NCBI GenBank assembly: GCA_034927775.1 | Contig: JAYFPL010000077.1 | Coordinates: forward strand, 12,906-76,905 | From: Anaerovorax sp. | GTDB taxonomy: Bacteria > Bacillota > Clostridia > Peptostreptococcales > Anaerovoracaceae | Reading direction: 5' to 3' | Length of the DNA stretch: 64,000 nucleotides | Shown: positions 1 to 63,529 of the stretch, one piece after another | Layout: every line of letters starts with the position of its first letter | How positions within the stretch are numbered: position 1 is the first letter of the stretch | Program-made: the position numbers and the translations under genes | Notes under the pieces: model-generated | Databases searched by the model: none | The model's input: only the letters and a program-made list of their open reading frames with translations | Told to the model about the DNA's origin: nothing

Positions 1-1738
1 TCGCATTCGGTATCAAATGTCTTGCCATACGATTTGCTTCGGTTGTATAAAAATTATTCCCTTTAAAGAATTCTCTCGGAGTTCCTTCTGTTACGATTCC
101 TCCATCAAAGAACATCGCACATCGCTCTGCGTAATTTGCGCAAAATTCCACATCATGACTTACCATAATAATAGTAATGCCTTTTTCTTTTAATCCTTCT
201 AGGATCAAAGCAAAACGTTTTTTATAGTCGCCATCCAATCCTTTCGTTGGTTCATCAAGTAATAAAATTTCCGGTTCCAACAGTAAAATTTTCGCCAAAG
301 CCACACGTTGTTGTTCTCCACCCGACAAATCGTATGGATGTTGTTGTAATAAATCTTTCAAGTCGCAAAGAGATATCACAATATCTACTTTTCGTTTCTT
401 CTCTTCTTTGGACATCTTGAATACACGAAGCATTTCATATAAATCCAGCTCCACTGTTTTTTTCACAAAAAGAGTCTGAGGATTTTGAGGCAAAACGCTG
501 AGCAGACCTTGAAATTTTTCTTCATCTTTCATCTCACTTAATAAACGACCTTGGATTTTTACGGTTCCCCGATACGGACGAAGAATGCCTGCGATTAAAG
601 ACAATGTTGTACTTTTTCCGGTTCCATTTCCACCAAGCAAAGCAAAAAATTCTCCTTTTTTTACTTTCAGATCTACGCCCTTTATAACATCCGGTAAATC
701 TTTTTCATATTTAAACCATGCTTCTTCAATTTCAATCGCATACTCGTCTTCCTTCTTTTCTTTTTTTGTACATTTCTGTGTTTGTTGTAACGATTGCATT
801 CCTTCTAAATCGAAAAATTTGGTTTGTTTTGATTGGTCAATTGGTGAATCATTTTCCTTCAGATCTATTTTAACTGCATTGTTCTGTTGATTTTTATGAT
901 TATTGGATCGTTGAAAAAAGGATGTTAACCATTCCCGTCCTTCTCTTACGGTAATCGGACAAGGCAAGGTATTTTTAACATTTGCATACACTTGCATCGG
1001 AATCGGCATTGCAGAAAACATTTTATTATGGCTTTCTGCAAGACTTTGTCCTACTTCTTTCGGTATCCCATCAGCAATAATTCTTCCCTGCTCCATTACG
1101 ATTAAGCGATCGCTAATCGGTAGTACCTGCTCCAAACGATGCTCCGTCATAATTACCGTTGTTCCCAACTCACGATTGATCTTTCCGACGGTTGCCAAGA
1201 AATCTGAGGCTGCAATCGGATCTAACTGACTTGTTGGTTCATCCAAAATTAAGACCGATGGTTGCATTGCCATAATTGCTGCTAAATTCAAAAGCTGTTT
1301 TTGGCCTCCGGATAATTCCGAAACATTTCTGTAAAACCAACCTTGAATTCCGAAAAAAGAAGCCATCTCGGCGACACGTAATCGAATGGTCTTTGTATCA
1401 TATCCCAAACTTTCCAACCCGAATGCTAATTCGTGCCAAACTTTATCGGTTACAATCTGATTATCCGGCGATTGCAATACAAATCCAATTTTTTCACTTT
1501 GCTCTCTTAAATCCATTTCCTCTAAAGGTTTCCCCTGAAACAAAATCTCTCCCGTCTTTTCGCCATGAGATGCCAATGATGGCTTTAGTTGACGTAATAA
1601 TGTCGTCTTTCCACAACCAGATGTTCCACATAGTGTGACAAACTGTCCAGGTTGAATGCTTAAACAAATATCCTTTAAGACCTGACGTTCTTGATTCGGA
1701 TAAGAGAAATTTAACTGTTTAATTGTGTAGCTTTCCAT
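1..1738 (-). CDS. ECF/cobalt-type ABC transporter ATP-binding protein with two fused ATPase domains (partial, runs off the left edge)
   Basis: Absent from the ORF track because it is open at the window edge. My minus-strand translation from ATG 1738 (RBS GGAGAA) reads MESYTIKQLNFSYPNQERQVLKDICLSIQPGQFVTLCGTSGCGKTTLL (Walker A). A second Walker A (GGNGTGKST) is encoded around 590-660. The start overlaps the end of the EcfT gene. Confidence 0.8.
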   Translation of the reverse strand, partial: MESYTIKQLNFSYPNQERQVLKDICLSIQPGQFVTLCGTSGCGKTTLLRQLKPSLASHGEKTGEILFQGKPLEEMDLREQSEKIGFVLQSPDNQIVTDKVWHELAFGLESLGYDTKTIRLRVAEMASFFGIQGWFYRNVSELSGGQKQLLNLAAIMAMQPSVLILDEPTSQLDPIAASDFLATVGKINRELGTTVIMTEHRLEQVLPISDRLIVMEQGRIIADGIPKEVGQSLAESHNKMFSAMPIPMQVYANVKNTLPCPITVREGREWLTSFFQRSNNHKNQQNNAVKIDLKENDSPIDQSKQTKFFDLEGMQSLQQTQKCTKKEKKEDEYAIEIEEAWFKYEKDLPDVIKGVDLKVKKGEFFALLGGNGTGKSTTLSLIAGILRPYRGTVKIQGRLLSEMKDEEKFQGLLSVLPQNPQTLFVKKTVELDLYEMLRVFKMSKEEKKRKVDIVISLCDLKDLLQQHPYDLSGGEQQRVALAKILLLEPEILLLDEPTKGLDGDYKKRFALILEGLKEKGITIIMVSHDVEFCANYAERCAMFFDGGIVTEGTPREFFKGNNFYTTEANRMARHLIPNA

Positions 1739-2622
1739 TGTCTATTCTCCTTTACGTCAATCACAATCGGTACTATGCAAAGTGTAAAATACACAGCATA
1801 AGAAAACAGAAAAAAAATGGTAGATGGATTTCCTTTTACGGTTGGATAATATCTAAAATAGTAGACTTTCATCAATCCACAAACCAAAACGAATATTCCC
1901 AAAATACCAATATAAAGCAATGCTTTTTTATCTCTTCGATCGAATCGATAAATGGAAAATGCCGTTCTTCCCGGAAGTCCGTATCCTCTGCTTTTCATAC
2001 TTTCTGCCGTTTCAATTGCATTTTCCAACGCCCAAGTGATCATAATCGATAAAATCGTAATGCCGTTCTTCGATTTTTGAATCCAAGAACCGTTTGATAA
2101 ATCTCTTCCGATACACTTTTGGGCGTAAGATATTTTTTTAATCTGTGCTTTAAATCGTGGTACAAACCGCAACACCATTGACAATATCAATGACAATGCC
2201 GGAATCACCCTGCCAAACAAATAAATAAATTTATCGGATGTCATTACTTCGTTATAGCAAGAAAACCAACAAATTACCGCTGAAAGCATCGTTGCTGCCG
2301 CAATTCCGTATAAAATCGATTCCAATGTCAATGGATTTCCATTTGAAAAATACATTAAAATAGTTTGTCCTTCATGATTAAAAGCGGGATTTAAAATTGC
2401 TGTCACTATAAGCATCGGTGCTAAAAACCCAAAATTAAAAAGAATTGCTTTTTTTTCTTTTAAATAAATCGAATAGGTAAACGCAACCACTAAGGAAATT
2501 CCCAGACATACGGGATGCATAAACACCATGGAAAATCCCAATACAAATACAAAATACAAAAAGTTAACTAACGGATGATAAGAAGAAAAGGCATCCACAT
2601 GACATTCCTTATTTTTGCTCAT
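1711..2622 (-). CDS. Energy-coupling factor transporter transmembrane component (EcfT/CbiQ family)
   Basis: 303-aa polytopic membrane protein with the CbiQ/EcfT-type motif ALENAIETAESMKSRGYG. Translationally overlapped with the genes on both sides. Confidence 0.75.
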   Translation of the reverse strand: MSKNKECHVDAFSSYHPLVNFLYFVFVLGFSMVFMHPVCLGISLVVAFTYSIYLKEKKAILFNFGFLAPMLIVTAILNPAFNHEGQTILMYFSNGNPLTLESILYGIAAATMLSAVICWFSCYNEVMTSDKFIYLFGRVIPALSLILSMVLRFVPRFKAQIKKISYAQKCIGRDLSNGSWIQKSKNGITILSIMITWALENAIETAESMKSRGYGLPGRTAFSIYRFDRRDKKALLYIGILGIFVLVCGLMKVYYFRYYPTVKGNPSTIFFLFSYAVYFTLCIVPIVIDVKENRQWKATQLNS

Positions 2623-3502
2623 AGAAACCGTCTCCTACATCACGTCCCAAATCACAGGTATACACCCATACAATCACATCTTTGTCTTTAATCTGATATC
2701 GGCTACATCCGTAATTCGGGAACCAATTATTAACTTTATACATCCAGCCGGATAATTCTCCGCAATCAAATTCATAAAGATTATGAATTCCTTCAATATA
2801 TGCCGAATTATAAATCGGTGTATTTTCAAATTCCATATGTATTTTATTCTTTTTCGTTTCTCGACGAAGCAAATTAAATACACTTTCCCCTTCATAGAAG
2901 GTCACTTTCGTCGGTGGCAAAATTACGCCGTCTTTTGGTACCAATTCCACTTTCTCCGGATCCAAATCATCCATATTATCGAGTATGGTGTCACAGACAA
3001 TCGATATTGTACATGTCTTTGCGTTTTTTGTGATAATCGCGTCTTGTGGCTCTATCGGATGCGGTTTTCCTTCCGGAATCGGGTCAGTTAAATATTTGTC
3101 TTTTTCTCCTTTGCTTTCTTCGTCTATTCCTTGCAAACTCAAATGTTTATCACCTTGGTCACTTTTAGATTTTCCCTGCTTTGTTTCGCTTTCTCCACTT
3201 TCTGTTTTTTTCAAACCCGATTTTTCTGTTTCGCTTTGAGCTTCTGATTGATTATCCACTTTTTCGTCTTTTTTACTATCGCTGCTCTGTGATATTTTTT
3301 CTATATATTCTCCACTAGAATTCTCGTCCTCGCTTTTTTCTAAGTCTGTGACACTTTCACCATTTTCAGTTTCCTCTATCGAATAAGCGGGTTCGGAGTC
3401 CGCTTTTTCACCTTTGGCGTAATCACCGCCCCAAAAGAATGTTACGACAAGTAAAATACAAATAATCCCAATCCCCAGCCATTTATAATTCATTCTTTTC
3501 AT
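2609..3502 (-). CDS. Membrane-anchored DUF4430 (transcobalamin-like C-terminal domain) protein
   Basis: N-terminal signal anchor (WLGIGIICILLVVTFFW), then a long acidic Ser/Glu/Lys-rich linker. The C-terminal domain carries the DUF4430 hallmark GELSGWMYKVNNWFPNYGCSRYQIKDKDVIVWVYT. Confidence 0.75.
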   Translation of the reverse strand: MKRMNYKWLGIGIICILLVVTFFWGGDYAKGEKADSEPAYSIEETENGESVTDLEKSEDENSSGEYIEKISQSSDSKKDEKVDNQSEAQSETEKSGLKKTESGESETKQGKSKSDQGDKHLSLQGIDEESKGEKDKYLTDPIPEGKPHPIEPQDAIITKNAKTCTISIVCDTILDNMDDLDPEKVELVPKDGVILPPTKVTFYEGESVFNLLRRETKKNKIHMEFENTPIYNSAYIEGIHNLYEFDCGELSGWMYKVNNWFPNYGCSRYQIKDKDVIVWVYTCDLGRDVGDGFYEQK

Positions 3503-3594
3503 TCTGCCATCTCCTCATATCATGAGTTTCCCACTAAAAATAAGCAGTTACTTATTCATCGGTCTTTCTTCTTTATGCCATGTTTCAAAACTTG

Positions 3595-5247
3595 TTATAA
3601 TAATTCGGATGCATTCAACATGCGATAAAGCATTTCTGCAATTTCGCAACGTTTTACTGAAGTTTTCGGTGAAATTTCAATGGCACTCTGATCTATAATA
3701 TTTTTTTGATAGCAAAATGCATATGCATCAGATGCCCAATCAGACACTTCCACATAATCCGTAAATTGTGATAATACATCTCTCTTTGACAAGGTATCAA
3801 TTGTTGTATCCATTCCGCAAATTTTTGCCGCTCTTGCAATCATACATGCCGCTTCTTCTTTTGTAATTGTACCGTTAGGATTAAATGTTTTTTCGGAAGT
3901 TCCGCTTACAATTCCGTTTTTATAAGCACTAGCTACATAATCATAAAACCACTGATTCTTTTTCACATCCTCAAAGTTTATGTCACTGTTATCCTTTAAT
4001 CCCAATGCTTCTACCATAATAGTCGCAAATTCGGCACGACTCATTGTTGCATCCGGTACAAAATTGTCTTTTGTTTTTCCGTTGATAATTCCACGTTCCG
4101 CTAATGCTTCGATTGCTTCCTGGTTTTTATGATCCTTAATGTCTTTAAAGGTTTTTCCTTCGAATAAAATTTCTTTTATCTTTACTTCTTTATTTACGTT
4201 TGAATCTTTTTTATCTTTATTTACTTCTTCTGTAAATGCTTTAACATCATTCATTCGATACAAACTGTTTTTTCCATCAATAGCACGTTGAATGGATACC
4301 AAGGCATAAAACCCCTGTTCTGTAGCCATTTGATTTATATTTGAATCTTTCTTCGTATGTTGAAACCCCTTATTGTTTTTATGATAAGACATCAAATTAT
4401 CCTGTAATGTATTTCCATTTTTAATAAAACGTTCATCATCTAATGAAATGCCCAATTCCGTTAACGCTACAATAACTTGAACGACACTTTCAGAATTTGA
4501 TTCTCCCCAGGAATCATATCCTCCGTCATTATCCTGCATCTTTGATAAACAAAGTAAAGCTTTTTCGGTTGCCTCTTTTACTTTTGCTTTATCCTGATAC
4601 TTAGCCAATGCCTGTAAGACCATGCCAGTAATATCCGGATCCGCCGTTAGATCCATTAATTGTGCATCATCTGTTCCACCGGTTAAGGAAAACCCCCCAT
4701 CCGAAAGCTGTCTGGCTAAAATCTCTTCAATGTATTTTTCTCTGGTTGCTTGTACTGCTGCTTTCTTATTTTCCGGCATCGGATAATTTTTACTGTCTAA
4801 TGCAATCAATGCCCAAACTGGACCATTAATTCCCTGCCAAATGGTCTTTTCATAATCGCCCAAAGGAGTAAGCAAGTTATATCCAGCTACATTTCTTGGA
4901 TCGTAGCCAATTGCAGTCAGCGCTAAAATCAAACGCGAATAGTCCGTATATTTTTTTTCATGCAATACACCATTGCATTCCTTAACATACTTCTCCACCT
5001 GTGTATAGTAATTGTCAAAGTAACTCTTCGGTACATCACACCCACTTCGCGCAAGACCTAAGATTACCCATTCTCCGCCGATGGAACCCACTTGTGGGTA
5101 CTTAACTGTTTTACAAATATAGTTTGCAGTATTATTTAATGCTTGCTTACGAATTGTATGATCCGTTGCAAATACCCCAACTGCATTTCCCATAATCATG
5201 GTTACTACCAAGAATATGGACAATAATAACTTATTCCTCTGCTTCAT
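3595..5247 (-). CDS. Cell-wall anchored surface protein: prenyltransferase/terpene-cyclase-like alpha/alpha toroid repeats plus three C-terminal SLH domains
   Basis: Signal peptide (LLLSIFLVVTMIMGNAVGVFA). Repeated Q..DGGF/DGGY motifs (RQLSDGGFS, MQDNDGGYD). Three SLH repeats (FKDIKDH..., FEDVKKNQWFYDYV..., FTDYVEVSDWASDAY...). I moved the start to ATG 5247, 6 nt after the AAGGAGA RBS; the track start is 5274. Confidence 0.75.
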   Translation of the reverse strand: MKQRNKLLLSIFLVVTMIMGNAVGVFATDHTIRKQALNNTANYICKTVKYPQVGSIGGEWVILGLARSGCDVPKSYFDNYYTQVEKYVKECNGVLHEKKYTDYSRLILALTAIGYDPRNVAGYNLLTPLGDYEKTIWQGINGPVWALIALDSKNYPMPENKKAAVQATREKYIEEILARQLSDGGFSLTGGTDDAQLMDLTADPDITGMVLQALAKYQDKAKVKEATEKALLCLSKMQDNDGGYDSWGESNSESVVQVIVALTELGISLDDERFIKNGNTLQDNLMSYHKNNKGFQHTKKDSNINQMATEQGFYALVSIQRAIDGKNSLYRMNDVKAFTEEVNKDKKDSNVNKEVKIKEILFEGKTFKDIKDHKNQEAIEALAERGIINGKTKDNFVPDATMSRAEFATIMVEALGLKDNSDINFEDVKKNQWFYDYVASAYKNGIVSGTSEKTFNPNGTITKEEAACMIARAAKICGMDTTIDTLSKRDVLSQFTDYVEVSDWASDAYAFCYQKNIIDQSAIEISPKTSVKRCEIAEMLYRMLNASELL

Positions 5248-5277
5248 TTCCATTCTCCTTCTCTTTTTGCACAAAAA

Positions 5278-5560
5278 AATAAAAACTGTAGCATTTCTGC
5301 CACAGCCGTTTTTCTGCGTTATTTGTACACTGAAAAAAGCGTCCTCTAAAACGATAGACTCCGCCCGTCTTTCTCCAATTACCCGTGGATGTACTCGTAT
5401 TTTATGTAGGTCTTCTGGCTTACGCTTCTGGAGTAATTCTCCTACATCTTCACTTTACCTTCCCAGTTTCCCAGTGGCAAAACACAATAATCTAAAGCAA
5501 AGATTCCACGATTACAGCGGCGGGACCGCGCAGGATTTTAACCTGCTTCCCTCTTAGCTG
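5278..5560 (-). promoter_or_regulatory. Cobalamin (B12) riboswitch copy 1 with intrinsic terminator
   Basis: Minus strand reads GAGGGAAGCAGGTTAAAATCCTGCGCGGTCCCGCCGCTGTAATCGTG ... GCCACTGGGAAACTGGGAAGG ... B12 box AAGCCAGAAGACCTAC (plus-strand 5408-5419). It ends in hairpin GGCTGTGGCAGAAATGCTACAG followed by a T-run (5281-5307), just upstream of the SLH gene start. Confidence 0.85.
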
Positions 5561-5625
5561 TCTACGAAATTTTTCTAATAAAACAACGTAAACAGACATA
5601 AAATTTCTGTATTAATTTTTACTAC

Positions 5626-5654
5626 ATTCTACCAACCACTTATTTTATTGTCAA
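5626..5654 (-). promoter_or_regulatory. Sigma-A type promoter for riboswitch 1 and the B12 operon
   Basis: Minus strand TTGACA (5654-5649), 17-nt spacer, TAGAAT (5631-5626). Confidence 0.5.
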
Positions 5655-5876: not shown

Positions 5877-6032
5877 TTAAAGTTTGATGCTTTTTCTCAC
5901 ATCTTCCACGCGAATGGGTTTTCCTTCATTAATAATGACACGTAATTCACCATATTTAATTTCACGGATTAAAGCCAAAAGCTTAACCTCCTCTTTTCGG
6001 GTTACTGTCAAATCAACCAAAGGTCGTTCCAT
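5877..6032 (-). CDS. YezD/DUF2292-like small protein (51 aa), below the ORF-track size cut-off
   Basis: My translation: MERPLVDLTVTRKEEVKLLALIREIKYGELRVIINEGKPIRVEDVRKSIKL. RBS GAAAGGAGGG lies 6 nt upstream. The C-terminal pattern YGELRVIINEGKPIRVE resembles the YezD signature (FGSLQIVVHDGQITQIE in B. subtilis). Bracketed by riboswitch 2 and a terminator. Confidence 0.6.
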   Translation of the reverse strand: MERPLVDLTVTRKEEVKLLALIREIKYGELRVIINEGKPIRVEDVRKSIKL

Positions 6033-6064: not shown

Positions 6065-6350
6065 TAAAAAAGCTGTGACATCTGCCACAGCCGTATTTCT
6101 GTAAAATCTGTACACTGAAAAAACAAGTAACTCTATTATAGCCTTACTCTTTTTTCCTCCAATTACCCGTGGAATGTACTTCAATTTTATGTAGGTCTTC
6201 TGGCTTACGTTTGCGGAAAAATGTTTCCTTTATCTTTGCTTACCTTCCCAGCTTTTCCAGTGGTAAATTACAATGTAATTTATATGCAAAGATTTCACGA
6301 TTACAGCGGCGGGACCGCGCAGGATTCAAACCTGCTTTCCTCTTAGCTAT
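6065..6350 (-). promoter_or_regulatory. Cobalamin riboswitch copy 2 with intrinsic terminator
   Basis: Same conserved blocks as copy 1: GAGGAAAGCAGGTTTGAATCCTGCGCGGTCCCGCCGCTGTAATCGTG, CCACTGGAAAAGCTGGGAAGG, and the B12 box on plus strand 6193-6204. Terminator GGCTGTGGCAGATGTCACAGC plus T-run at 6065-6092. Confidence 0.85.
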
Positions 6351-6591
6351 CTAAAATGAATAAGATTGTAGATAGACATAAAATCTATATTAAATTGTTA
6401 AATTATTTATTTTAAGGTCTCATGACCTTTTTATTTGCATCTTTTTACCAATCATCCATCCATTATATGAAAGAAAAGGAGCAGGAGAATCTTGGATATA
6501 GCCGCAAGTTCTATATCCGTAACACTCCTGCGGATGAAAAGGCAATGTTTAGTACCTCATATAGACTAACGGTTATATTTAAGCTAAAATC

Positions 6592-6848
6592 AAAAACAAA
6601 AAACTGTGGCACAAATGCCACAGCCCGTATTTTCTGTGTATCAATTAATACTAATTCGCTATATGACCAAAATTTCCCGTTGGTACAGCATCCTTTTATG
6701 CAGGTCTTCTGGTTTACGTTTATAGAGAATTCTCTTACGCCCTTGCTTACCTTCCCAGTTTCCCAGTGGCGAACTTTATCGTTCTAAAGCAAAGACTCCA
6801 CGATTACAGCGGCGGGACCACACAGGATTCTAACCTGTTTCCCTTACA
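6592..6848 (-). promoter_or_regulatory. Cobalamin riboswitch copy 3 with intrinsic terminator
   Basis: GGGAAACAGGTTAGAATCCTGTGTGGTCCCGCCGCTGTAATCGTG, GCCACTGGGAAACTGGGAAGG, and the B12 box AAACCAGAAGACCTGC (plus 6702-6713). Perfect CTGTGGCA/TGCCACAG hairpin at 6604-6623 plus T-run. Confidence 0.8.
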
Positions 6849-6874
6849 CAAAAGTCTTTTATGAAGTTATATTA

Positions 6875-6908: not shown

Positions 6909-7871
6909 TTACAAAAATAATTTACTTTGCTTTTTTAATACGTATTCCCTCTGTTCACGGTTTGAAGCCATCAACTCATGAACAACATATTTAGGATCTA
7001 ATTTCTCAATGACTTGTCTTGCTCTTAAACAACTAGTCGGTTGATGCGTATCAATATTCCCTAAAAGCTGATAAACTTGCTTAAATCTTTTGTAATAATC
7101 TTTTTCAAGCTCTGGTACCTGTTTTAATGCATTCTTAGTAAATTCTCCGGTTACGGATTGATGCAAATGCACTCCTTTAACATATTGGGCCAAGTCTCCA
7201 TGAAGCTCCAACATATTTTCAATATAGTTCCATGCTTCTTCTTCTGTTTTTAACTCAAGATTACTGCACATAAGATGTCCGGTATCCAGCATAATGCCTT
7301 TGTTCTTATAATGGACTCGTTCTAAAAGACGTTCTGTCATCTTCGGATCGGTCATCGTAAGACCCGGCCACCACAAGTTTTCCATAAGGAAGGTAAACTG
7401 ATAGTCTTGCTCATCTAATAGTTGATTGATTAAATCTGCCGAAGCATCGATAACCTCTTCGTTAGTATGTATATGTTGATGTTTAAACACACCTTCAATT
7501 GTTACATCGGAAATATGGAATACGACATACTCTGCTTTCATTTTTTCAGCATGAGCTAAATCCTTTTTAAAGTTTTCCAAAAGAACGTTCGGTTCTTTTC
7601 CTCCATAAAAACCTTCCCATATCTCACGACTTCCAAATTCAGAATACAGCGCATCTTCATTCTTATTCCAAAAATCAATCCAAAAAGGATAAAAAGACAT
7701 GTGAAGTCCCTTTACCATATCCGGTAGTATAATAGCTCGATCATCATTTCCGCAACATATTATTTCTAAACCTTTGCACCCATATTTTTCGTAAAAATCC
7801 TTTAAATCTTTTGCATTTTTGTACTCTGACAAAATTTCATTGTAGCTGGGTATATATAATATTTGTTCCAT
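6909..7871 (-). CDS. Sugar phosphate isomerase/epimerase (xylose isomerase-like TIM barrel) family protein
   Basis: Family-like motifs EYVVFHISD, FLMENLWWP, IMLDTGHLM and GVHLHQS. Start moved to ATG 7871 behind a GGAGGG RBS. Confidence 0.55.
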   Translation of the reverse strand: MEQILYIPSYNEILSEYKNAKDLKDFYEKYGCKGLEIICCGNDDRAIILPDMVKGLHMSFYPFWIDFWNKNEDALYSEFGSREIWEGFYGGKEPNVLLENFKKDLAHAEKMKAEYVVFHISDVTIEGVFKHQHIHTNEEVIDASADLINQLLDEQDYQFTFLMENLWWPGLTMTDPKMTERLLERVHYKNKGIMLDTGHLMCSNLELKTEEEAWNYIENMLELHGDLAQYVKGVHLHQSVTGEFTKNALKQVPELEKDYYKRFKQVYQLLGNIDTHQPTSCLRARQVIEKLDPKYVVHELMASNREQREYVLKKQSKLFL

Positions 7872-8104
7872 TCTCTTCCCTCCTACCATTCTTATCCATT
7901 ATATTTTTGTATATTTGAAATGTCAATCCTTGAACTTTTATTTCAATTTTCGTCGACTTTTGATTGCTTTATAACCTGGCACCCTTATTGCAAATAAGGC
8001 TAAAATGTGATAGTTTTATTATAGAGAATAAATCATTCCATGCTTACAGCAAGAATGTTTCTAATACATAATAGAAGTACGTAGCATTCATAGGAGGAAT
8101 AAAA

Positions 8105-9433
8105 ATGAGAAAAAAAATAATTTGGAAAAAAAGTCTGGCGTTCTGTCTGACATTCTGTTTACTGATGAGTGTACTCAGCGGATGCAGCTTTGAAAAAGAA
8201 GAGCAGCAATCGGAAGCCCTCATTGCTTTAGAGAGTGCCGTTAACTATTATAAAACACAGAATAATTTGAATAATTGGGAAGAATTAGTAGCTCTTTGTG
8301 CAGCAAATCAAGCGGATGGAATCGGCATTGGCTGGAGTTTCCTTAATCTTCCAAAAACACCAAAAGTGAATGAATACGCCTCCTCCTATATCGGAGTTAT
8401 TTTAAGTGATACCATCAAGGGAGAAGGAGATCCAATCAGCTTAGCGAAAAAATTGTCAGAGACACAAAACGAAGAAAGTGGTTCCTTTGACTCGATTTAC
8501 ATCAATCAACACGTATGGGCTATGATTACTTTAAACGTTGCAATCAGTAAAGACGGTTATGACTATGATAAAGCAGTCTCTTACCTTCTTTCCTACCAGG
8601 CAGAAGACGGAGGATTTGCTTACGGTCAAAACCTTGCCGAAGGTAATGTTGATTTAACCGGGATAGCTTGTATTGCATTAGCTCCATATTATCAAAAACA
8701 TAAAAAAGATCCTGCAATGAAAAAAATCATCCAATTCTTTAAAGATAAACAATTGGAAACTGGTGGTTTTGAAAATGGTGATGTAGAAAATCCTTGCACC
8801 ATTGCTGCAGCCATTTGGGGACTTTCTGCCTTTGAGCAATCCCTACCGTCTACCGATGAAGGTCTCACTCCATTTGAAGCCTTAGTTGCTTTTCAAAACG
8901 AGGACGGCAGCTTCCGAATGAAAAAAGACGGTGATCATAAGTTTGACAATCTTGCTACAAGGCAGTCTACAATCGCTTTGTGTGATATTGTAAATGATAT
9001 TAATACGTATCTTTTACTTGCTTCTGGCGCAGAAACGTATCGTATTGATCATATATCAGGACCTGCTATTACCTTAACTATTGATTATCCAGAAGGCAGT
9101 GGAGAGCAAGACGTTCATGGACCATTCACCATTGAGGAAGGATCAACCGTTTTGGATGCAATCGTATTATATGGGAAAATTACAGAAACTCCAATAGAAC
9201 ATAAATCCGGTGATATTAAAAGTATTAACGGCTTTTCCGAAGAGTCAAATGAAGATACAGAAACACCAAATAATTTACCAGAAAATCCGGTAGGCTGGAG
9301 TTTTACAGTAAATAACCAAATGCCTGAAAATAATGCAAAAAATACAATTTTGAAAGAAGGCGACCTTTTAACTTGGACTTTTGCTCCTTCCTTACCTCTG
9401 GAGGTACAAAAAGAAAATGCAGCGGTTCAATAG
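8105..9433 (+). CDS. Lipoprotein fusing an alpha/alpha-toroid (prenyltransferase-like) domain with a C-terminal DUF4430 domain (transcobalamin-like architecture)
   Basis: Lipobox LSGC. Repeats YQAEDGGFAYG, QLETGGFENG and FQNEDGSFRM. C-terminal DUF4430-like ITLTIDYPEG...STVLDAIV...INGFSEE...GWSFTVNNQMPENNAKNTILKEGDLLTWTF. Confidence 0.7.
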   Translation: MRKKIIWKKSLAFCLTFCLLMSVLSGCSFEKEEQQSEALIALESAVNYYKTQNNLNNWEELVALCAANQADGIGIGWSFLNLPKTPKVNEYASSYIGVILSDTIKGEGDPISLAKKLSETQNEESGSFDSIYINQHVWAMITLNVAISKDGYDYDKAVSYLLSYQAEDGGFAYGQNLAEGNVDLTGIACIALAPYYQKHKKDPAMKKIIQFFKDKQLETGGFENGDVENPCTIAAAIWGLSAFEQSLPSTDEGLTPFEALVAFQNEDGSFRMKKDGDHKFDNLATRQSTIALCDIVNDINTYLLLASGAETYRIDHISGPAITLTIDYPEGSGEQDVHGPFTIEEGSTVLDAIVLYGKITETPIEHKSGDIKSINGFSEESNEDTETPNNLPENPVGWSFTVNNQMPENNAKNTILKEGDLLTWTFAPSLPLEVQKENAAVQ

Positions 9434-54767: not shown

Positions 54768-57251
54768 TTAAAGTTTTATTTGGGAATTTTTTTTGTTTTC
54801 TTCTTGAATCTCATCCTCATCTTCATCTTCACGAACTACCTTAGCCATTGCAATGATGTTCGCATCGTCTTCCACCTTCATTATCTTAACTCCTTGCGTT
54901 GCTCTGCCGAGTCTTGATACTTCCGATGCCTTGATTCGAATGATAATACCATCCGAATTAATCAGTAAAATTTCATCATTTTCATTGACAACCATAGCAC
55001 CGATTAATTCTCCAGTTTTACTGAATTTTGCTTTATCATAAGTCAAAAGACCTTTACCGCCTCTTGCTTGAACCTTATAATCTTTAACTGCTGTTCTCTT
55101 TCCGTAACCAGCTTGTGTAACTACCAATAGTTCTTCTTCTTTTTCTGCAAGCTCCATAGCAACCACTTCATCGCCTTTTTCTAAAGAAATTGCACGTACG
55201 CCACCTGCTAAACGACCCATTGGTCTCACATCTTCTTCACTGAAGCAAATACACTTGCCATGCTTTGTTACAATAATGACATTGCTCGTTCCGGAAGTCT
55301 CTTTGATTCCGATAAGTTGGTCACCTTCTTTTAGATTAATCGCGATCAATCCGGTTTTACGGTTAGTATCAAATTGCGCCATATCCATTTTCTTAATGGT
55401 ACCCTTTTTTGTAACTGCAATCAAATACTTATTTGCATCAAAGGATTGAATCGGAATCACTGCCGTAATTCTTTCACGCTGCATTAAATTTAAGAAATTT
55501 ACTGCAGGCGTACCCTTTGCAGTTCTCTGCGCTTCCGGAATTTCATAGGCTTTGATGCGATGTGCTTTTCCGGTATTTGTAAAGAACATTAAGTAATCAT
55601 GTGTTGATGTAATCAACATATTCTTTACAAAATCATTTTCTCTTGTAGTCAGTCCGGTAATTCCTTTTCCTCCACGTTTCTGTGTTTTATAGGTATCGGA
55701 TGATACACGCTTGATATATCCTAAATGTGTTAAAGTAATTGCTACATTTTCTTCTGCAATTAAATCTTCTTCGTCAATTTCTTGTGCATCGGCTACAATT
55801 TGTGTTCTACGTTTATCGCTGTATTTTTTCTTAATTTCAAGAAGCTCATCTTTAATAACACCCATCAATTTTTTTTCATCTGCAAGTAAGCTCTTGTAGT
55901 AAGCGATTTTTTCCATCAATTCTTTATATTCTGCTTCGATTTTTTCTCGTTCCAATCCTTGCAGTCTGGCAAGACGCATATCTAAAATAGCTTGTGCCTG
56001 TAATTCAGAAAGTCCAAAGCGCTCCATTAAACGAGGCTTTGCATCGTTATAGCTGGATCGAATGATTTTGATAATTTCATCAATGTTATCAAGAGCAATG
56101 CGTAAACCTTCTAAGATATGTGCCCTTGCTTCTGCTTTATTTAAATCAAAAATCGTTCTTCTTGTAACAACATCCTTCTGATGCTTTAGATACTCTACTA
56201 AAATTTCTCTTAAATTCAATAACTTTGGCTGCCCATTGACAAGAGCAATCATAATCATACTGTAACTATCTTGCATTTGGGTATGTTTATACAAACGATT
56301 TAAAGTAATCTGCGGATTTGCATCTCTTTTCAACTCGATGACAATACGCATACCATGACGGTTGGATTCATCTCGAATGTCGGAAATACCTTCAATTTTC
56401 TTTTCTTTTACCAAATCTGCGATTTTTTCAATCAATCTTGATTTATTTACTTGATAAGGAATTTCTGTGACAATAATCTGTTGTCTTCCTTTTGCCGTTT
56501 CTTCAAATTCCACTTTTGCACGAACCACTACTTTTCCTTGTCCTGTACGATAAGCTTCCTTTGCATTATTTTTACCCATAATGATAGCGCCCGTAGGAAA
56601 ATCTGGTGCTTTTATAATTTTAATCAAATCCTCTACGGTTGCATCTTCATCATCAATTAGTTTTATAGCACCATCAATTACCTCACCAAGATTGTGAGGC
56701 GGAATGGAGGTTGCCATACCAACGGCAATCCCGTTGGAACCATTTACTAAAAGGTTTGGAAAACGAGACGGTAATACGGTCGGCTCTTTTTCTTCTTCAT
56801 CAAAGTTCGGCATAAAATCAACCGTTTCTTTGTCAATATCTCGAAGCATTTCCAAAGCAAACGGAGTCATTCTTGCTTCGGTGTAACGCATTGCCGCAGC
56901 CCCGTCTCCATCGACAGAACCAAAGTTTCCATGACCGTCGACCATCATATAGCGAATGGAGAAATCCTGTGCCATACGAACCATCGCATCATAAATCGAG
57001 CTATCTCCATGAGGGTGATATTTACCCATTACTTCACCGACAATACGAGCCGATTTTTTATGCGGCTTATCCGGTGTAACGCCAAGTTCGCTCATTCCAT
57101 ATAAAATTCTTCGATGAACTGGCTTAAGTCCATCTCTTACATCGGGTAATGCTCTTCCTACAATAACGCTCATTGCGTAATCAATATAGGAGTTTTTCAT
57201 TTCATCATGAATTTCATGCTGAATGACTTTTGTATCTTCTAATAAATTCAT
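54768..57251 (-). CDS. gyrA: DNA gyrase subunit A
   Basis: [28 protein letters not shown], the active-site region [10 protein letters not shown], and C-terminal beta-pinwheel repeats. Confidence 0.97.
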
Positions 57252-57267
57252 TTTGCTTTCTTTCCTC

Positions 57268-59235
<1,968 letters not shown>

Positions 59236-59496
59236 TCATATTGTTTTATCAAATCTTATCGTATTTTCTTCAAAACCTCTAATTCAAACCATGCACAAAA
59301 AGGCTTTTCGAGTAAACTCATTAAAAACCTTTCTTCTTATATTTTATTCATAAACTTCATTATAACTTAATTCTTGCCAATATACAACTTTTTTACCAAA
59401 ACAGCTTAAAATATTAAAAAGTTTATTTTCGCGCTTCTAATCGGCGTTTTTCGGTTTTGCCACTATATTTTATTCTTTTATATATATTGCCTTTTT

Positions 59497-59708
59497 CAAT
59501 CCACATCTTATCCTTAATTTTTTCTAGTATTTTTTGATTTTTCTCCATTTATTTCTCTATAAAATTTTTTATTTGCTACCTTTATTTTTTGATTTTACAC
59601 AATATCTGCACATTGTGAACAGATTTACTTGTTTTACCCACAAATTGTGTATAACTTCTGTTAATCTGATTTTTTCATTATTTTCTTTTAGGTATTGCCT
59701 GTGGATAA
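59497..59708. other. oriC part 1: DnaA-box cluster and AT-rich tract upstream of dnaA
   Basis: Perfect box TGTGGATAA at 59700-59708. 8/9 boxes TTACCCACA (59634-59642) and TGTGTATAA (59646-59654). Weaker boxes at about 59497 and 59508. T-rich tract at 59521-59600. Confidence 0.75.
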
Positions 59709-59785
59709 CTTTTTTTGTTATGATATCTGTACGTAATTATCTTATAAATAACTATTAAAATATCTATTTTTAGAATGGAGTACCA

Positions 59786-61123
59786 ATGAATAATTTAAAA
59801 ACACTCTGGGAAAAAACTCTAGAGCTTCTTCAACCTGAATTAACACCTGTAAGCTATGATACCTGGATTTCTCCTTTATCCCCAATCAATGTGGACGAAA
59901 AAGAAGGAATCCTATATTTATCTCTTTACAGTGATTTTTCAAAATCGATTTTAGAAGGCCGATATAAACCCGTTATTGAAAATGCAGTAAAGCAAGCGTT
60001 TGGACAAGCTTTGAAAGTGTCGTTTATTTCACCGGAGGAAGCGCAGGTAAGTCAAACTAACAGCGCTGCTTTAGGACACGGTTTTACAGATGAGCTCTAT
60101 TTAAACCCAAAATACATATTTAACACCTTCGTCATTGGAAACAACAATCGTTTTGCACACGCTGCTTCCTTAGCTGTTGCTGAACAACCGGCAAAAGCAT
60201 ACAACCCCCTATTCATTTATGGTGGGGCTGGGCTCGGAAAAACGCACTTAATGCATGCAATCGGGCATTATATTTTACAACAAAATTCAAAAACTAGGGT
60301 GCTTTACGTTTCTTCGGAAATGTTTACAAATGAATTGATTAAGGCAATCCGTACAGATAAAAACGTAGAATTTAGAAACAAATATCGCAGCATTGATGTA
60401 TTGATGATTGACGACATCCAATTCATCGAAAAAAAAGAACGAACGCAAGAAGAAATTTTCCATACCTTTAATACTCTATATGAAGCAAACAAACAGATTA
60501 TTATTTCCAGCGATCGTCCCCCAAAGGAAATTGCAACATTGGAAGAACGTTTGCGTTCTCGTTTTGAATGGGGTTTAATTGCAGATATTCAAGCTCCCGA
60601 TTATGAAACGAGAGTTGCAATTTTAATGAAAAAAGCAGAATTAGAAGAAGTAGCTATTACAGATGCTCTTTTAGATGTCATCGGAATCATTGCAGAAAAA
60701 ATTCAATCTAATATCCGAGAATTGGAAGGTGCTTTTATCCGCGTGATTGCTTATGCAAATCTTACTAATCAGAAAATTACAAGAGAATTAGCAAAAGAAG
60801 TACTAAAAGATGTCTTTTCTTCAAAGAATACAGAAATTACTCCTACCATTATTAAACAAACGGTTTGCAAACATTTTGATATCAAAGAGTCCGACATGGT
60901 ATCTTCAAAAAGATCTCGAAATATTGCTTTTCCAAGACAAATTGCAATGTATTTATGTCGAACACTTACTGATTTATCTTTACCTAAGATCGGCGAAGAA
61001 TTTGGTAATCGTGACCATACAACGGTATTACATGCTTATGAAAAAATTTCTACTTCTTTTGCTGAAAGCGAAGATTTTAAAAATGTTATATCTACATTAG
61101 AATCACAGATAAAAGAAATTTAA
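59786..61123 (+). CDS. dnaA: Chromosomal replication initiator protein DnaA
   Basis: [16 protein letters not shown], the box VII/VIII region, and the C-terminal DNA-binding motif [12 protein letters not shown]. Confidence 0.97.
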
Positions 61124-61232
61124 TCCACAGGGCAAGGAAATTAAAAGGAAATTTGATAATAGTTATACACAGGTTTCTCACAAGCAACATCGTGTATTTT
61201 ACTTATCCACAGAAGTTATCCACAAATCCACA
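61121..61232. other. oriC part 2: DnaA-box cluster between dnaA and dnaN
   Basis: Perfect TTATCCACA at 61203-61211 and 61216-61224. 8/9 boxes TAATCCACA (61121) and TTATACACA (61163). AAATCCACA at 61224. Confidence 0.8.
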
Positions 61233-61283
61233 GCCCCTATTACTACTGTTACTAACTTTTATTTATAAGAAGGAGGCATTCTC

Positions 61284-62396
61284 ATGCGCTTTACTTGTTC
61301 CCAACAAATATTATCGAAGGCACTAAATACTGTTTCAAAAGCCGTTACCACTAGGACAACTCTACCAATCTTAAAAGGCATTCTTTTAGAAACAACCAGT
61401 GACAACCAACTAAAACTTTCCGCTTCAGATTTAGACTTAAGCATTGAAAAAACAATATCCGTATCTATTTCTGAACCAGGTGCTTTAGTCGTTTCCGCAC
61501 GTTTATTCAGTGATATTATTCGAAAATTACCAAATGAAACAATAGAAGTAGAACAATTAGAAAATAATCAAATTCGTATTCGCTGTATGGCTTCTGAATT
61601 TACAATTATTGGATTACCCGCTGAAGAATTTCCAAATATCGGAACTGTAATGGAAGACCAAGCTTTGCTAATTGAAAAAGAACTTTTAAAAGATATGATA
61701 AAAAAGACATCCTTTGCAGCTAGTATCGATGAATCAAAAGGAATTATTGTTGGTGTTTTAATTGATTTATCTGTGGATAAAATGACTATGGTTGCGTTGG
61801 ATGGTTTCCGAATGGCTGTAACAAGAGAAAATATGAAAAATGAACAAGAAAAAAAATTAGTTATAGCAGCTCGTATCTTAAACGAAATCAATAAAATTAT
61901 TATGGATTCTGAGAAAGAAGAATCAATTACTTTGATATTAGATGATAAAAAAGCAGTTATCACTATGGAAGATACACGTATCATTCTTCGTTTATTAGAA
62001 GGAGAATTTATAAAATACAATGATATTCTTCCTAAAAATTATAATTGTCGTGTTCTTTTAAATAAAAATGAATTTTTAGAAAGTATTGAAAGAGCTTCTT
62101 TATTAGCAAAAGAAGGTAAAAATAATCTAGTTAAATTCTCAATCGAAGGAGAAAGTATGGAAATTACTTCTCGATCTGAAGAAGGAAACGTAAGAGAAAC
62201 CGTTATGATAGAAAAATTAGGAGATAATTTGGAGATTGGATTTAATTCAAAATATGTTTTGGATGTTTTAAAGGTAGTCACTGATGAAAGAATCATTTTA
62301 CAATTCAATAGTAGTATAAGTCCTTGTTTAATTAAACCGGTAGAAGGAGATGCTTTTGAATATTTAGTTCTGCCTGTAAGAATTGCTAATAATTAA
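61284..62396 (+). CDS. dnaN: DNA polymerase III beta sliding clamp
   Basis: MRFTCSQQILSKALNTVSKAV.TRTTLPILKGILLE is the typical DnaN N-terminus. Three-domain length. Confidence 0.97.
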   Translation: MRFTCSQQILSKALNTVSKAVTTRTTLPILKGILLETTSDNQLKLSASDLDLSIEKTISVSISEPGALVVSARLFSDIIRKLPNETIEVEQLENNQIRIRCMASEFTIIGLPAEEFPNIGTVMEDQALLIEKELLKDMIKKTSFAASIDESKGIIVGVLIDLSVDKMTMVALDGFRMAVTRENMKNEQEKKLVIAARILNEINKIIMDSEKEESITLILDDKKAVITMEDTRIILRLLEGEFIKYNDILPKNYNCRVLLNKNEFLESIERASLLAKEGKNNLVKFSIEGESMEITSRSEEGNVRETVMIEKLGDNLEIGFNSKYVLDVLKVVTDERIILQFNSSISPCLIKPVEGDAFEYLVLPVRIANN

Positions 62397-62410
62397 GGGA
62401 AGGATTCATA

Positions 62411-63529
62411 ATGTATCTCAATGAAATACAATTACAGAATTTTCGAAATTACGAGACGCAAATTGTTAAATTTCATCCTAAAGTAAATATCATTACCGGA
62501 AACAATGCACAAGGAAAAACTAATTTGTTAGAAGCAATTTATATTATGAGCCTTGGTAAGTCTTTTCGAACCAATAAAGATTCGGAAATGATTGGTTTTG
62601 ATAAGGATTATTGTTCTGCGAAAAGTATTACTGTAAAAAATAAGGATCAGATTGAAATTGAGATTCGGTATTCTGCAAAGCAAAAACAAATAAAAATTGA
62701 TGGAGTTCCCATTCAGAAGAACATTGATTTGCTTGAACATGTTTATACCGTTATCTTTTCACCTGAAGATTTAAAAATTGTAAAAGGTGAGCCGGAAAAA
62801 AGAAGGAAATTTATAGATCGTGAGCTTTGTCAGTTAAAACCGATTTATTATAAAAACTTAGGACGATATAAGAAAATTATTCAGCATCGTAATATTTTAT
62901 TAAAGAATCAAGAATTAGATAAACAAGTATTAGATGTTTGGAATGAAGAACTGGCTGAATATGGTTCAAGAATTATATTAGAAAGAAATCATTTTATTGA
63001 AAAATTAAATCGAATCAGTAAAGATTTACATCATAAAATAACAAATGGAAAAGAAAATCTTGAAATTTTTTATGAATCAAATTTATCGATTGGGTTAAAT
63101 TTAAAGGAGCAAAAAGAAATATTTCTGAATGCTCTTCAAAAAAATATAAAGAATGACTTATTTCATGGCAGTACAGGAATTGGTCCGCATAAAGACGATT
63201 TAAAAATCAGTATTGATGGAATAGATATTCGAAGATTTGGATCACAAGGTCAGCAAAGAACCGCAGCGCTTTCTTTAAAGCTTGCTGAGATTTCTTTAAT
63301 TAAAGAAGAAACAAAGGAAGATGCTATTTTGCTGTTGGACGATGTTTTATCCGAATTAGATGGAGAAAGACAAAGTTTTTTATTAAATCGTTTAAAGGAA
63401 ATACAAATTTTTATAACAACAACTGAAATAGGACAAACATTATTGAAAAATATGCCGGATGGATTTGTTTTTACAGTAAAAAATGGAACTGTACAACGTT
63501 TAGAAAATAGTACAAAAACATTGACATAG
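62411..63529 (+). CDS. recF: DNA replication/repair protein RecF
   Basis: LQNFRNYE, GNNAQGKTNLLEAI (Walker A), GSQGQQRT (signature) and LLLDDVLSELD (Walker B). Confidence 0.95.
   Translation: MYLNEIQLQNFRNYETQIVKFHPKVNIITGNNAQGKTNLLEAIYIMSLGKSFRTNKDSEMIGFDKDYCSAKSITVKNKDQIEIEIRYSAKQKQIKIDGVPIQKNIDLLEHVYTVIFSPEDLKIVKGEPEKRRKFIDRELCQLKPIYYKNLGRYKKIIQHRNILLKNQELDKQVLDVWNEELAEYGSRIILERNHFIEKLNRISKDLHHKITNGKENLEIFYESNLSIGLNLKEQKEIFLNALQKNIKNDLFHGSTGIGPHKDDLKISIDGIDIRRFGSQGQQRTAALSLKLAEISLIKEETKEDAILLLDDVLSELDGERQSFLLNRLKEIQIFITTTEIGQTLLKNMPDGFVFTVKNGTVQRLENSTKTLT

Follow-up and report, generated by a model that had tools for sequence, protein, structure and literature searches.

A putative B12-repressed operon for corrinoid capture and import, with a split transcobalamin-like protein pair, in Anaerovorax sp.

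A candidate corrinoid capture-and-import operon

We analysed a stretch of 64,000 nucleotides (hereafter the window; NCBI GenBank assembly GCA_034927775.1, contig JAYFPL010000077.1, positions 12,906 to 76,905) from a metagenome-assembled genome (MAG) of Anaerovorax sp. (Clostridia, Anaerovoracaceae). At its left end, on the minus strand, a cobalamin riboswitch is followed by four genes. These encode a secreted alpha/alpha-toroid protein with a wall anchor, a membrane-tethered DUF4430 protein, an EcfT component and a double energy-coupling factor (ECF) ATPase, which in the closest relative continues into a CbrT-like S component. Taken as a whole, the operon is likely to be a dedicated, B12-repressed system by which a monoderm bacterium captures and imports corrinoids. 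The two extracellular proteins would correspond to the two halves of a transcobalamin, encoded here as separate polypeptides.

The initial annotation of the window had described a B12-gated operon with an SLH-anchored toroid protein as its first gene, a membrane-anchored DUF4430 protein with a long acidic linker, EcfT/CbiQ as the third gene and a double ABC ATPase as the last, i.e. an ECF-type importer behind an extracellular pair. These assignments held, and the importer can now be specified as one of B12 type, as the S domain of an orthologue matches CbrT. For the last gene, two ECF ATPase domains were indeed found, but its open reading frame (ORF) is incomplete and runs off the left edge of the window.

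The extracellular pair

The first gene (3595-5247, minus strand; 550 aa) encodes the proposed alpha half. Its product comprises a Sec signal peptide, a helical-repeat region of ~310 residues and three C-terminal S-layer homology (SLH) motifs, and is identical to P0001 of the Anaerovorax sp. MAG. The start codon was picked by the spacing of the ribosome-binding site (RBS), AAGGAG being located 7 nt 5' of the ATG at 5247. TTG at 5274 was rejected as a start, because it lies within the terminator U-tract and the RBS suits the ATG at 5247. The SLH triplet matched Pfam PF00395 (2.9e-29), and the same region matched Sap SLH structures (3PYW at 6.5e-17; 3PYW and 6BT4 at ~7e-17). Judged by these matches, the protein is anchored to the wall by its SLH domains, with predicted attachment to a wall polymer.

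An AlphaFold2 (AF2) model of the helical-repeat region, built from 63 homologues, adopts an alpha/alpha toroid (predicted local distance difference test, pLDDT, 93.4; predicted template modelling score, pTM, 0.92). In a Foldseek search against the PDB, many alpha/alpha toroids were retrieved with similar scores (E 4e-5 to 3e-3, template modelling, TM, scores 0.4-0.6). A GH88 glucuronyl hydrolase ranked first and transcobalamin took ranks 2, 3, 6, 9, 11 and 13, while terpene cyclases and prenyltransferase beta subunits were among the other matches. By its model, the toroid alone is a generic alpha/alpha toroid, compatible with a transcobalamin-like one which is not singled out. The likeness to the transcobalamin alpha domain that had been claimed for it is visible in rank 2 of the list, but is shared by many toroids that score equally.

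At the sequence level, the toroid region matched SQHop_cyclase_C at 5.9e-5, under the Pfam cut-off, and hidden Markov model (HMM) profiles of the toroid family matched squalene-hopene/class II terpene cyclases (~1e-10) and the alpha-2-macroglobulin thioester domain. PF01122 (Cobalamin_bind) gave no match up to E 10 with the window toroid, P0097 (see below), P0314 or the fused protein of the window. Searches of PDB sequences, using single sequences and HMM profiles of the toroid, DUF4430 and fused families, returned no transcobalamin, intrinsic factor or haptocorrin, and homology of the alpha domain therefore cannot be claimed from sequence. The motif DPDIT at residue 203 resembles DxDDTA of class II cyclases. 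That the toroid is itself active as a class II terpene cyclase was considered but is unlikely, since the motif reads DPDIT and the protein is secreted and wall-anchored.

The second gene (2609-3502, minus strand; 297 aa) encodes the proposed beta half. An N-terminal transmembrane (TM) helix (residues 8-26) is followed by an acidic low-complexity linker, a conserved Pro-rich segment and a beta-grasp DUF4430 domain. Residues 26-150, which run into the conserved Pro-rich segment, contain 12 Asp, 22 Glu, 18 Lys and 19 Ser and carry a net charge of -16. The domain at residues 205-282 scored 65.4 bits (6.4e-18) against PF14478, compared with a cut-off of 23.8, and is by this profile match a bona fide member of the family. 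It belongs to an unusually conserved subfamily, with 70-81% identity across genera and families. In some relatives, a lipid anchor is found on the beta half in place of the TM helix. Four cysteines of the subfamily are near-invariant (2609-3082, minus strand; C24, C30, C126 and C143 in domain numbering), and a motif preceding the domain, DKYLTDPVPEGKPxPVEP, is conserved and kept in natural fusions.

Natural fusions of the two halves

The alignment of both domains was bridged by natural fusions, in which toroid and DUF4430 domain form one polypeptide. The fusion protein P0097 shares 62% identity with the window toroid and 66% with the window DUF4430 domain. It is a lipoprotein encoded behind a cobalamin riboswitch and ahead of a predicted membrane protein (with a match to the EcfT profile) and an ECF-type ATPase. 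Besides P0097, toroid/DUF4430 fusions were found in at least 20 clusters, covering both domain orders and including the arrangement toroid-SLH-DUF4430. That the two domains are fused in either order argues for one joint function.

When the AF2 model of P0097 (pLDDT 88.9, pTM 0.63) was compared with the PDB by Foldseek, the 15 best matches, with E 5e-11 to 1e-8 and ~500 aligned columns, were without exception structures of transcobalamin, intrinsic factor or haptocorrin. Other toroids began at 6e-6, so that the cobalamin carriers scored about five orders of magnitude better. The beta domain of P0097 was superposed on that of human transcobalamin (5NO0, 5NP4) with target-normalised TM scores (TMt) of 0.75-0.76 and a root-mean-square deviation (rmsd) of 3.1-3.2 A. 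The two-domain architecture of the carriers, an alpha6/alpha6 toroid followed by a DUF4430 beta-grasp domain, is present in the P0097 fusion, while in the window pair it is divided between separate proteins. Of the split transcobalamin proposed in the initial annotation, the fold and the architecture stand on these 15 matches, but membership of the alpha domain by sequence does not, PF01122 being without a match.

The importer and its predicted fused S component

The third gene (1711-2622, minus strand) encodes the EcfT/CbiQ transmembrane component (PF02361, 1.7e-9), named 'energy-coupling factor transporter transmembrane component T' by NCBI. It overlaps the second gene by 14 nt, and the fourth gene overlaps it by 28 nt. 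The fourth gene (1-1738, minus strand; ATG at 1738, open at base 1) encodes a double ECF ATPase, with matches to TIGR04520 (1.8e-110) and TIGR04521 (1.9e-103) that are both above the cut-offs.

For the sequence past the left edge of the window, the closest genome, Anaerovorax sp. IOR16 (locus L007), was used as a stand-in. The order of elements in this locus is a riboswitch (90.7 bits), the toroid-SLH gene, the DUF4430 gene, EcfT and a gene for a protein of 897 aa. The fourth ORF of the window is 96% identical to residues 4-579 of this protein, and the window stops exactly at residue 579. The last ~320 residues of the IOR16 protein comprise two extra TM helices and a domain typical of ECF S components (PF07155/PF12822). 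In the orthologue from Sporobacter (L004), the S domain matched CbrT (PDB 6FNP chain A) with an E-value of 3.6e-12 over 172 of 182 residues. Judged by these orthologues, the S domain is fused C-terminally to the double ATPase and is not encoded by a separate gene, and the fourth ORF represents the first 579 codons of an EcfA-EcfA'-EcfS (CbrT-like) triple fusion. On this comparison, the S component would be missing from the window because the window edge cuts off the C-terminal part of the fusion.

At least two extra TM helices are predicted after the second ATPase and ahead of the CbrT-like domain in the triple fusions of L007 (10885-13578), L003 (13507-16179) and L004 (13504-16305), and would leave the N-terminus of the S domain on the cytoplasmic side. 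Such a covalently tethered S component deserves attention in light of the toppling and dissociation models of ECF transporters.

Conservation across related loci

One genome per species was scanned for loci with a close relative of the DUF4430 domain, which yielded at least 591 loci. The counts given here refer to the best 80 of them, annotated with our own HMMs and coming from Oscillospiraceae, Sedimentibacter, Pelotomaculum, Anaerovoracaceae, Paenibacillus and others. A toroid-SLH gene was located directly upstream of the DUF4430 gene in 71 of the 80 loci, EcfT followed downstream in 75 and an ATPase-ATPase-S fusion in 64. All three were present together in 59 loci, and those without the full set were mostly truncated by contig ends. 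The functional pairing of the two extracellular proteins that had been proposed earlier is supported by this adjacency (71/80) together with the fusion clusters, of which at least 20 exist and which cover both orders. The suspicion that an S component lies past the left edge is likewise supported, by its fusion to the ATPase in the 96%-identical IOR16 orthologue and in the 64 related loci.

A cobalamin riboswitch was found upstream on the same strand in 32 loci (31 detected by nhmmer and one more by Rfam), while only 4-6 loci with adequate upstream sequence had none. The majority of the others are indeterminate, because the locus begins within the gene of a large surface protein upstream. In L005, L069 and L086, where the unit can be seen in full, the riboswitch is situated ahead of this large gene. 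For riboswitches, nhmmer is less sensitive than Infernal, and it missed the riboswitch of L051 that was found by Rfam; the counts are therefore lower bounds. With a riboswitch in 32 loci versus 4-6 without one, the cassette belongs regularly to the B12 regulon of Bacillota.

Regulation of the operon

The aptamer of the riboswitch preceding the operon (riboswitch 1; 5388-5611, minus strand, read from 5611 to 5388) was identified by Rfam RF00174 with 89.1 bits (E 1.1e-20), compared with a gathering threshold of 31.5, and covers model positions 1-189, i.e. the full length. A sigma-70-like promoter is predicted upstream (5626-5654, minus strand; TTGACA, 17 nt, TAGAAT, with TG), by match to the consensus only (11/12 positions). 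The promoter element is identical in Anaerovorax sp. IOR16. Between the aptamer and the start codon of the first gene lies an expression platform, a GC-rich terminator-like hairpin with a U-tract (5284-5307, minus strand). Its stem, GGCTGTGGCA, is kept in all three riboswitch copies of the window and in IOR16. From this arrangement, we infer that the terminator of riboswitch 1 would act as an OFF switch. The B12 gating of the operon, as originally proposed, is supported by riboswitch 1 together with the 32 related loci that carry a same-strand cobalamin riboswitch upstream, versus 4-6 loci without.

Comparison with known systems

Related proteins were described by Burroughs, Balaji, Iyer and Aravind (2007, PMC1796856). 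According to the accessible text of that survey, the transcobalamin-like SLBB proteins of bacteria are secreted and encoded together with CbiO- and CbiQ-like genes, and many of them carry a fused alpha/alpha toroid, before or after the SLBB domain, in hosts that usually lack key enzymes of B12 biosynthesis. Based on these features, the proteins were predicted to be probable scavengers of B12 or its precursors, and a bacterial source of animal transcobalamin, intrinsic factor and haptocorrin was proposed. The systems resemble that of the window in their surface SLBB proteins, toroid fusions and CbiO/CbiQ-type operons. They come from a computational survey, in the accessible text of which the splitting into an SLH-toroid and a tethered beta protein, the riboswitch control, the ATPase-S fusion and the link to CbrT are not described.

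A syntenic operon is lsa1836-1840 of L. sakei (Verplaetse et al. 2019, bioRxiv 10.1101/864751), presented in the accessible part of the preprint as separate alpha-like (1840) and beta-like (1839) transcobalamin subunits forming a heterodimer that feeds an ECF transporter, composed of EcfT (1838), a fused ATPase pair (1837) and an S component (1836). Going by this published description, the set of components and the order of their numbering are like those of the window. The L. sakei system differs in its separate S component and heme-uptake phenotype, and neither SLH anchoring nor a riboswitch is mentioned in the accessible part of the preprint.

Animal transcobalamin, intrinsic factor and haptocorrin (2BB5, 2BB6, 8IXT, 2PMV, 3KQ4, 4KKI) share with the proteins described here the combination of an alpha/alpha toroid and a DUF4430/SLBB beta-grasp domain. 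In contrast to these carriers, the halves in the window are separate polypeptides with different anchors (the wall via SLH, the membrane via a TM helix or lipid), the alpha half has no PF01122 match, and delivery is proposed to proceed to an ECF transporter and not by receptor-mediated endocytosis.

ECF-CbrT of Lactobacillus delbrueckii (6FNP; Santos et al. 2018, PMC5997447) is an ECF-type importer, like that encoded by the window orthologues, and contains a homologous S domain. Cobalamin and cobinamide are both ligands and transport substrates of CbrT, with no inhibition of transport by hemin. As an S component of group II, CbrT is free and uses a shared general ECF module and no extracellular helpers, whereas the S domain of the window type is fused to the double ATPase via two extra TM helices, in a dedicated, group I-like module under riboswitch control.

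The pair in the window invites comparison with diderm bacteria as well. BtuG and BtuH of Bacteroides are surface lipoproteins that capture B12, are genetically linked to a B12 transporter and to B12 riboswitches, and include a beta-propeller fold. They are unrelated in fold to the window pair and function in a diderm cell with the TonB-dependent BtuB, which makes the likeness one of analogy and not of homology. By this analogy, the two probably play a similar ecological role in competition for B12.

The view that the system had not been characterised biochemically agrees with the literature searched, in which no biochemical corrinoid test was found, but the idea itself had been put forward by Burroughs et al. 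(2007) and Verplaetse et al. (2019). With the concept already in print, we add details, some of which may have been published as well. For the extracellular pair, these are the SLH anchor on the alpha half and the acidic leash on which the beta half is held; for the importer, the covalent fusion ATPase-ATPase-CbrT, which includes two extra TM helices. To these come a gene order that hardly varies, a count of the linkage to riboswitches and the recurrent accessory genes. Because the idea is not new, the value of the system lies in its being well defined and testable rather than in conceptual surprise.

Proposed mechanism and alternative explanations

A relay may be envisaged as follows. At low intracellular adenosylcobalamin, the riboswitch would permit transcription past the terminator. 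The toroid protein would be secreted and held in the wall by its SLH domains, while the DUF4430 beta-grasp domain would be held at the membrane by its TM helix, on a flexible acidic leash of ~100 residues. As a heterodimer, the toroid and the beta domain would clamp one corrinoid between them, by analogy to transcobalamin, intrinsic factor and haptocorrin. The tethered beta domain would then keep the ligand near the membrane and pass it to the CbrT-like S domain, which together with the two ATPases, all in one polypeptide, would work with EcfT in ATP-driven import. The beta domain of transcobalamin alone can hold cobalamin (PDB 5NP4), which makes a shuttle function of the beta domain plausible by analogy. 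The specific sequence of clamp, leash and handover to the S domain is put forward tentatively, its chance being somewhat below even.

A still wider picture can be drawn, which we regard as speculative, with a chance somewhat below even. The system would be a Gram-positive counterpart of BtuG/BtuB, in which a two-tier relay with a transient transcobalamin-like clamp pulls corrinoids through the thick wall to a fused ATPase-CbrT motor. In many species it would be helped by a CbiR-like enzyme, a DUF2292 mini-protein and giant DUF4430-SLH binders, and the animal carriers would have evolved from split pairs of this kind or from fusions of them, as Burroughs et al. proposed.

Several observations speak against corrinoid capture by a transcobalamin-like pair. 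Taken alone, the toroid resembles glycoside hydrolases and prenyltransferases as much as transcobalamin in Foldseek comparisons, and HMMER detects no likeness to the transcobalamin alpha domain, the scores being terpene-cyclase-like. The P0097 model, when compared with holo-transcobalamin over the whole chain, deviates by an rmsd of ~17 A with a query-normalised TM score (TMq) of ~0.36; the closed arrangement is not reproduced at a pTM of 0.63. This mismatch may reflect an open apo state or low inter-domain confidence of the model, and a transcobalamin-like clamp geometry is therefore hypothetical. The S domain itself lies outside the window. No riboswitch was found upstream in the Sporobacter locus (L004) and a few others, and in the literature searched we found no paper testing corrinoid binding or transport by such proteins. 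Finally, in the one genetic study of a syntenic system, deletion of lsa1836-1840 impaired heme accumulation in L. sakei and complementation restored it, a phenotype concerning heme and not B12 (Verplaetse et al., 10.1101/864751).

This phenotype speaks for a system that would import heme or another non-corrin tetrapyrrole, the toroid/DUF4430 pair scavenging heme as proposed for Lsa1839/Lsa1840. The syntenic L. sakei set does contain alpha-like and beta-like proteins, EcfT, a fused ATPase pair and an S component. However, three cobalamin riboswitches are present at the locus and an upstream riboswitch in 32 related ones, the S domain of the orthologue is homologous to CbrT, for whose transport hemin does not compete, and in 10 loci a candidate gene for cobamide remodelling is located within the cassette. 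We consider heme import highly improbable as the function of this system, while some promiscuity towards tetrapyrroles is possible. In another alternative, only the ECF-CbrT part would handle B12. The SLH-toroid would then be a wall enzyme or structural protein (of terpenoid, polysaccharide or thioester type), DUF4430 would bind something else, and co-transcription would reflect wall remodelling around the transporter. Profile searches, which group the toroid with squalene-hopene/class II cyclases and the alpha-2-macroglobulin thioester domain, the GH88 glucuronyl hydrolase as best Foldseek match of the toroid alone, and the resemblance of DPDIT at residue 203 to DxDDTA all point in this direction. 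Yet the motif reads DPD-I and lacks the catalytic third Asp, the toroid is extracellular and recurrently fused to DUF4430 in either order, the fused architecture matches only cobalamin carriers in the PDB top 15, and the near-invariant adjacency of both genes (71/80) occurs under B12 riboswitch control. Such a division of roles is, in our judgement, unlikely.

The extracellular pair might also sequester or store corrinoids at the surface, as competitive hoarding or as protection from analogues, with no directed handover. Extra surface binders are indeed common, with giant DUF4430-SLH or toroid-DUF4430-SLH proteins encoded upstream in 32 of the 80 loci and a fused lipoprotein present in the window, and Bacteroides is known to have surface binders that compete for B12. 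Handover is favoured instead by the overlaps of 14 and 28 nt, which couple the genes tightly in translation to EcfT and the ATPase-S fusion, and by the membrane tether on a long leash, which suits delivery. We give pure sequestration a small chance; it overlaps with capture and import, which it does not exclude.

Most gut and sediment Clostridia need corrinoids that not all of them can make. The capture of picomolar B12 outside the monoderm membrane is essentially uncharacterised, while BtuB, BtuG and BtuF of diderms are well studied. Found in at least 591 species-level genomes, and as a rule controlled by a B12 riboswitch, the cassette is a strong candidate for the principal route by which many Bacillota capture B12 with high affinity. 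If the split pair does bind corrinoids and feed the ECF-CbrT motor, this would help to explain B12 competition in anaerobic communities, settle the question of heme versus B12 raised by the L. sakei work, and place the proposal that animal B12 carriers arose from bacteria on an experimental basis.

Neighbouring genes

Two paralogues of riboswitch 1 precede it on the same strand, riboswitch 2 (6173-6396, minus strand; Rfam 94.4 bits, own terminator at 6092-6071) and riboswitch 3 (6682-6866, minus strand; 67.7 bits, own terminator at 6626-6601). The three copies in a row have a mean column identity of 75%, and each is equipped with its own GGCTGTGGCA terminator. In IOR16, by comparison, the 7 kb upstream of the toroid gene contain a single riboswitch. 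The first copy in the row may be a tandem or orphan switch, because ~200 nt with no ORF longer than 41 aa follow before the second copy. The only coding sequence behind riboswitches 3 and 2 is an ORF of 51 aa (5877-6032, minus strand; PF10055, 1.5e-5), annotated as DUF2292 by NCBI. In three other loci, L065 (Sporobacter termitidis), L033 (Ca. Formimonas warabiya) and L036 (a Pelotomaculum MAG), the toroid-SLH gene is likewise closely preceded by a DUF2292-like ORF, with a riboswitch match ahead of the ORF in L065 and L033.

Further upstream, a gene at 6909-7889 (minus strand) encodes a xylose-isomerase-like TIM-barrel protein of the AP_endonuc_2 family (PF01261, 2.4e-10), and is preceded by a promoter with perfect consensus (7926-7898). 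In 10 of the 80 loci, a homologue of this gene separates EcfT from the ATPase-S gene, and a homologue also lies within the riboswitch operon of L003. Their location inside the cassette suggests, together with the family assignment, a candidate CbiR-like phosphodiesterase of cobamide remodelling. The CbiR family, which belongs to the AP endonuclease 2 superfamily, is described in PMC7733943; the supplement of that paper lists no relatives from the genera of the related loci.

The next gene (8105-9433, plus strand; 442 aa) encodes a lipoprotein (lipobox LSGC) in which a toroid (Prenyltrans, 2.4e-8) and a DUF4430 domain (1.8e-9) are fused. The toroid and its counterpart in the SLH protein are homologous (BLASTP 5e-9), and no riboswitch was found upstream of the gene in the Rfam scan of the window. 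By its domain matches, this protein is a single-chain transcobalamin-like paralogue beside the split pair.

The IOR16 locus gives a view of the surroundings of the cassette. Following the ATPase-S gene, at a place corresponding to the region just past the left edge of the window, a surface protein of 1707 aa is encoded (L007 13686-18809; aBig_2, DUF4430 and SLH, with a toroid HMM match). About 5.5 kb upstream of the cassette, IOR16 harbours a second ECF unit (L007 1-1831), in which a double ATPase is accompanied by an S component of 240 aa as a protein of its own, with a cadherin-like SLH protein of 1650 aa encoded next; the unit is absent between the corresponding genes of the window. Lastly, the region of the chromosomal replication origin is located at 54768-63529 of the window, where a gap of 575 nt (59212-59785) separates gyrA and gyrB on the minus strand from dnaA, dnaN and recF on the plus strand.

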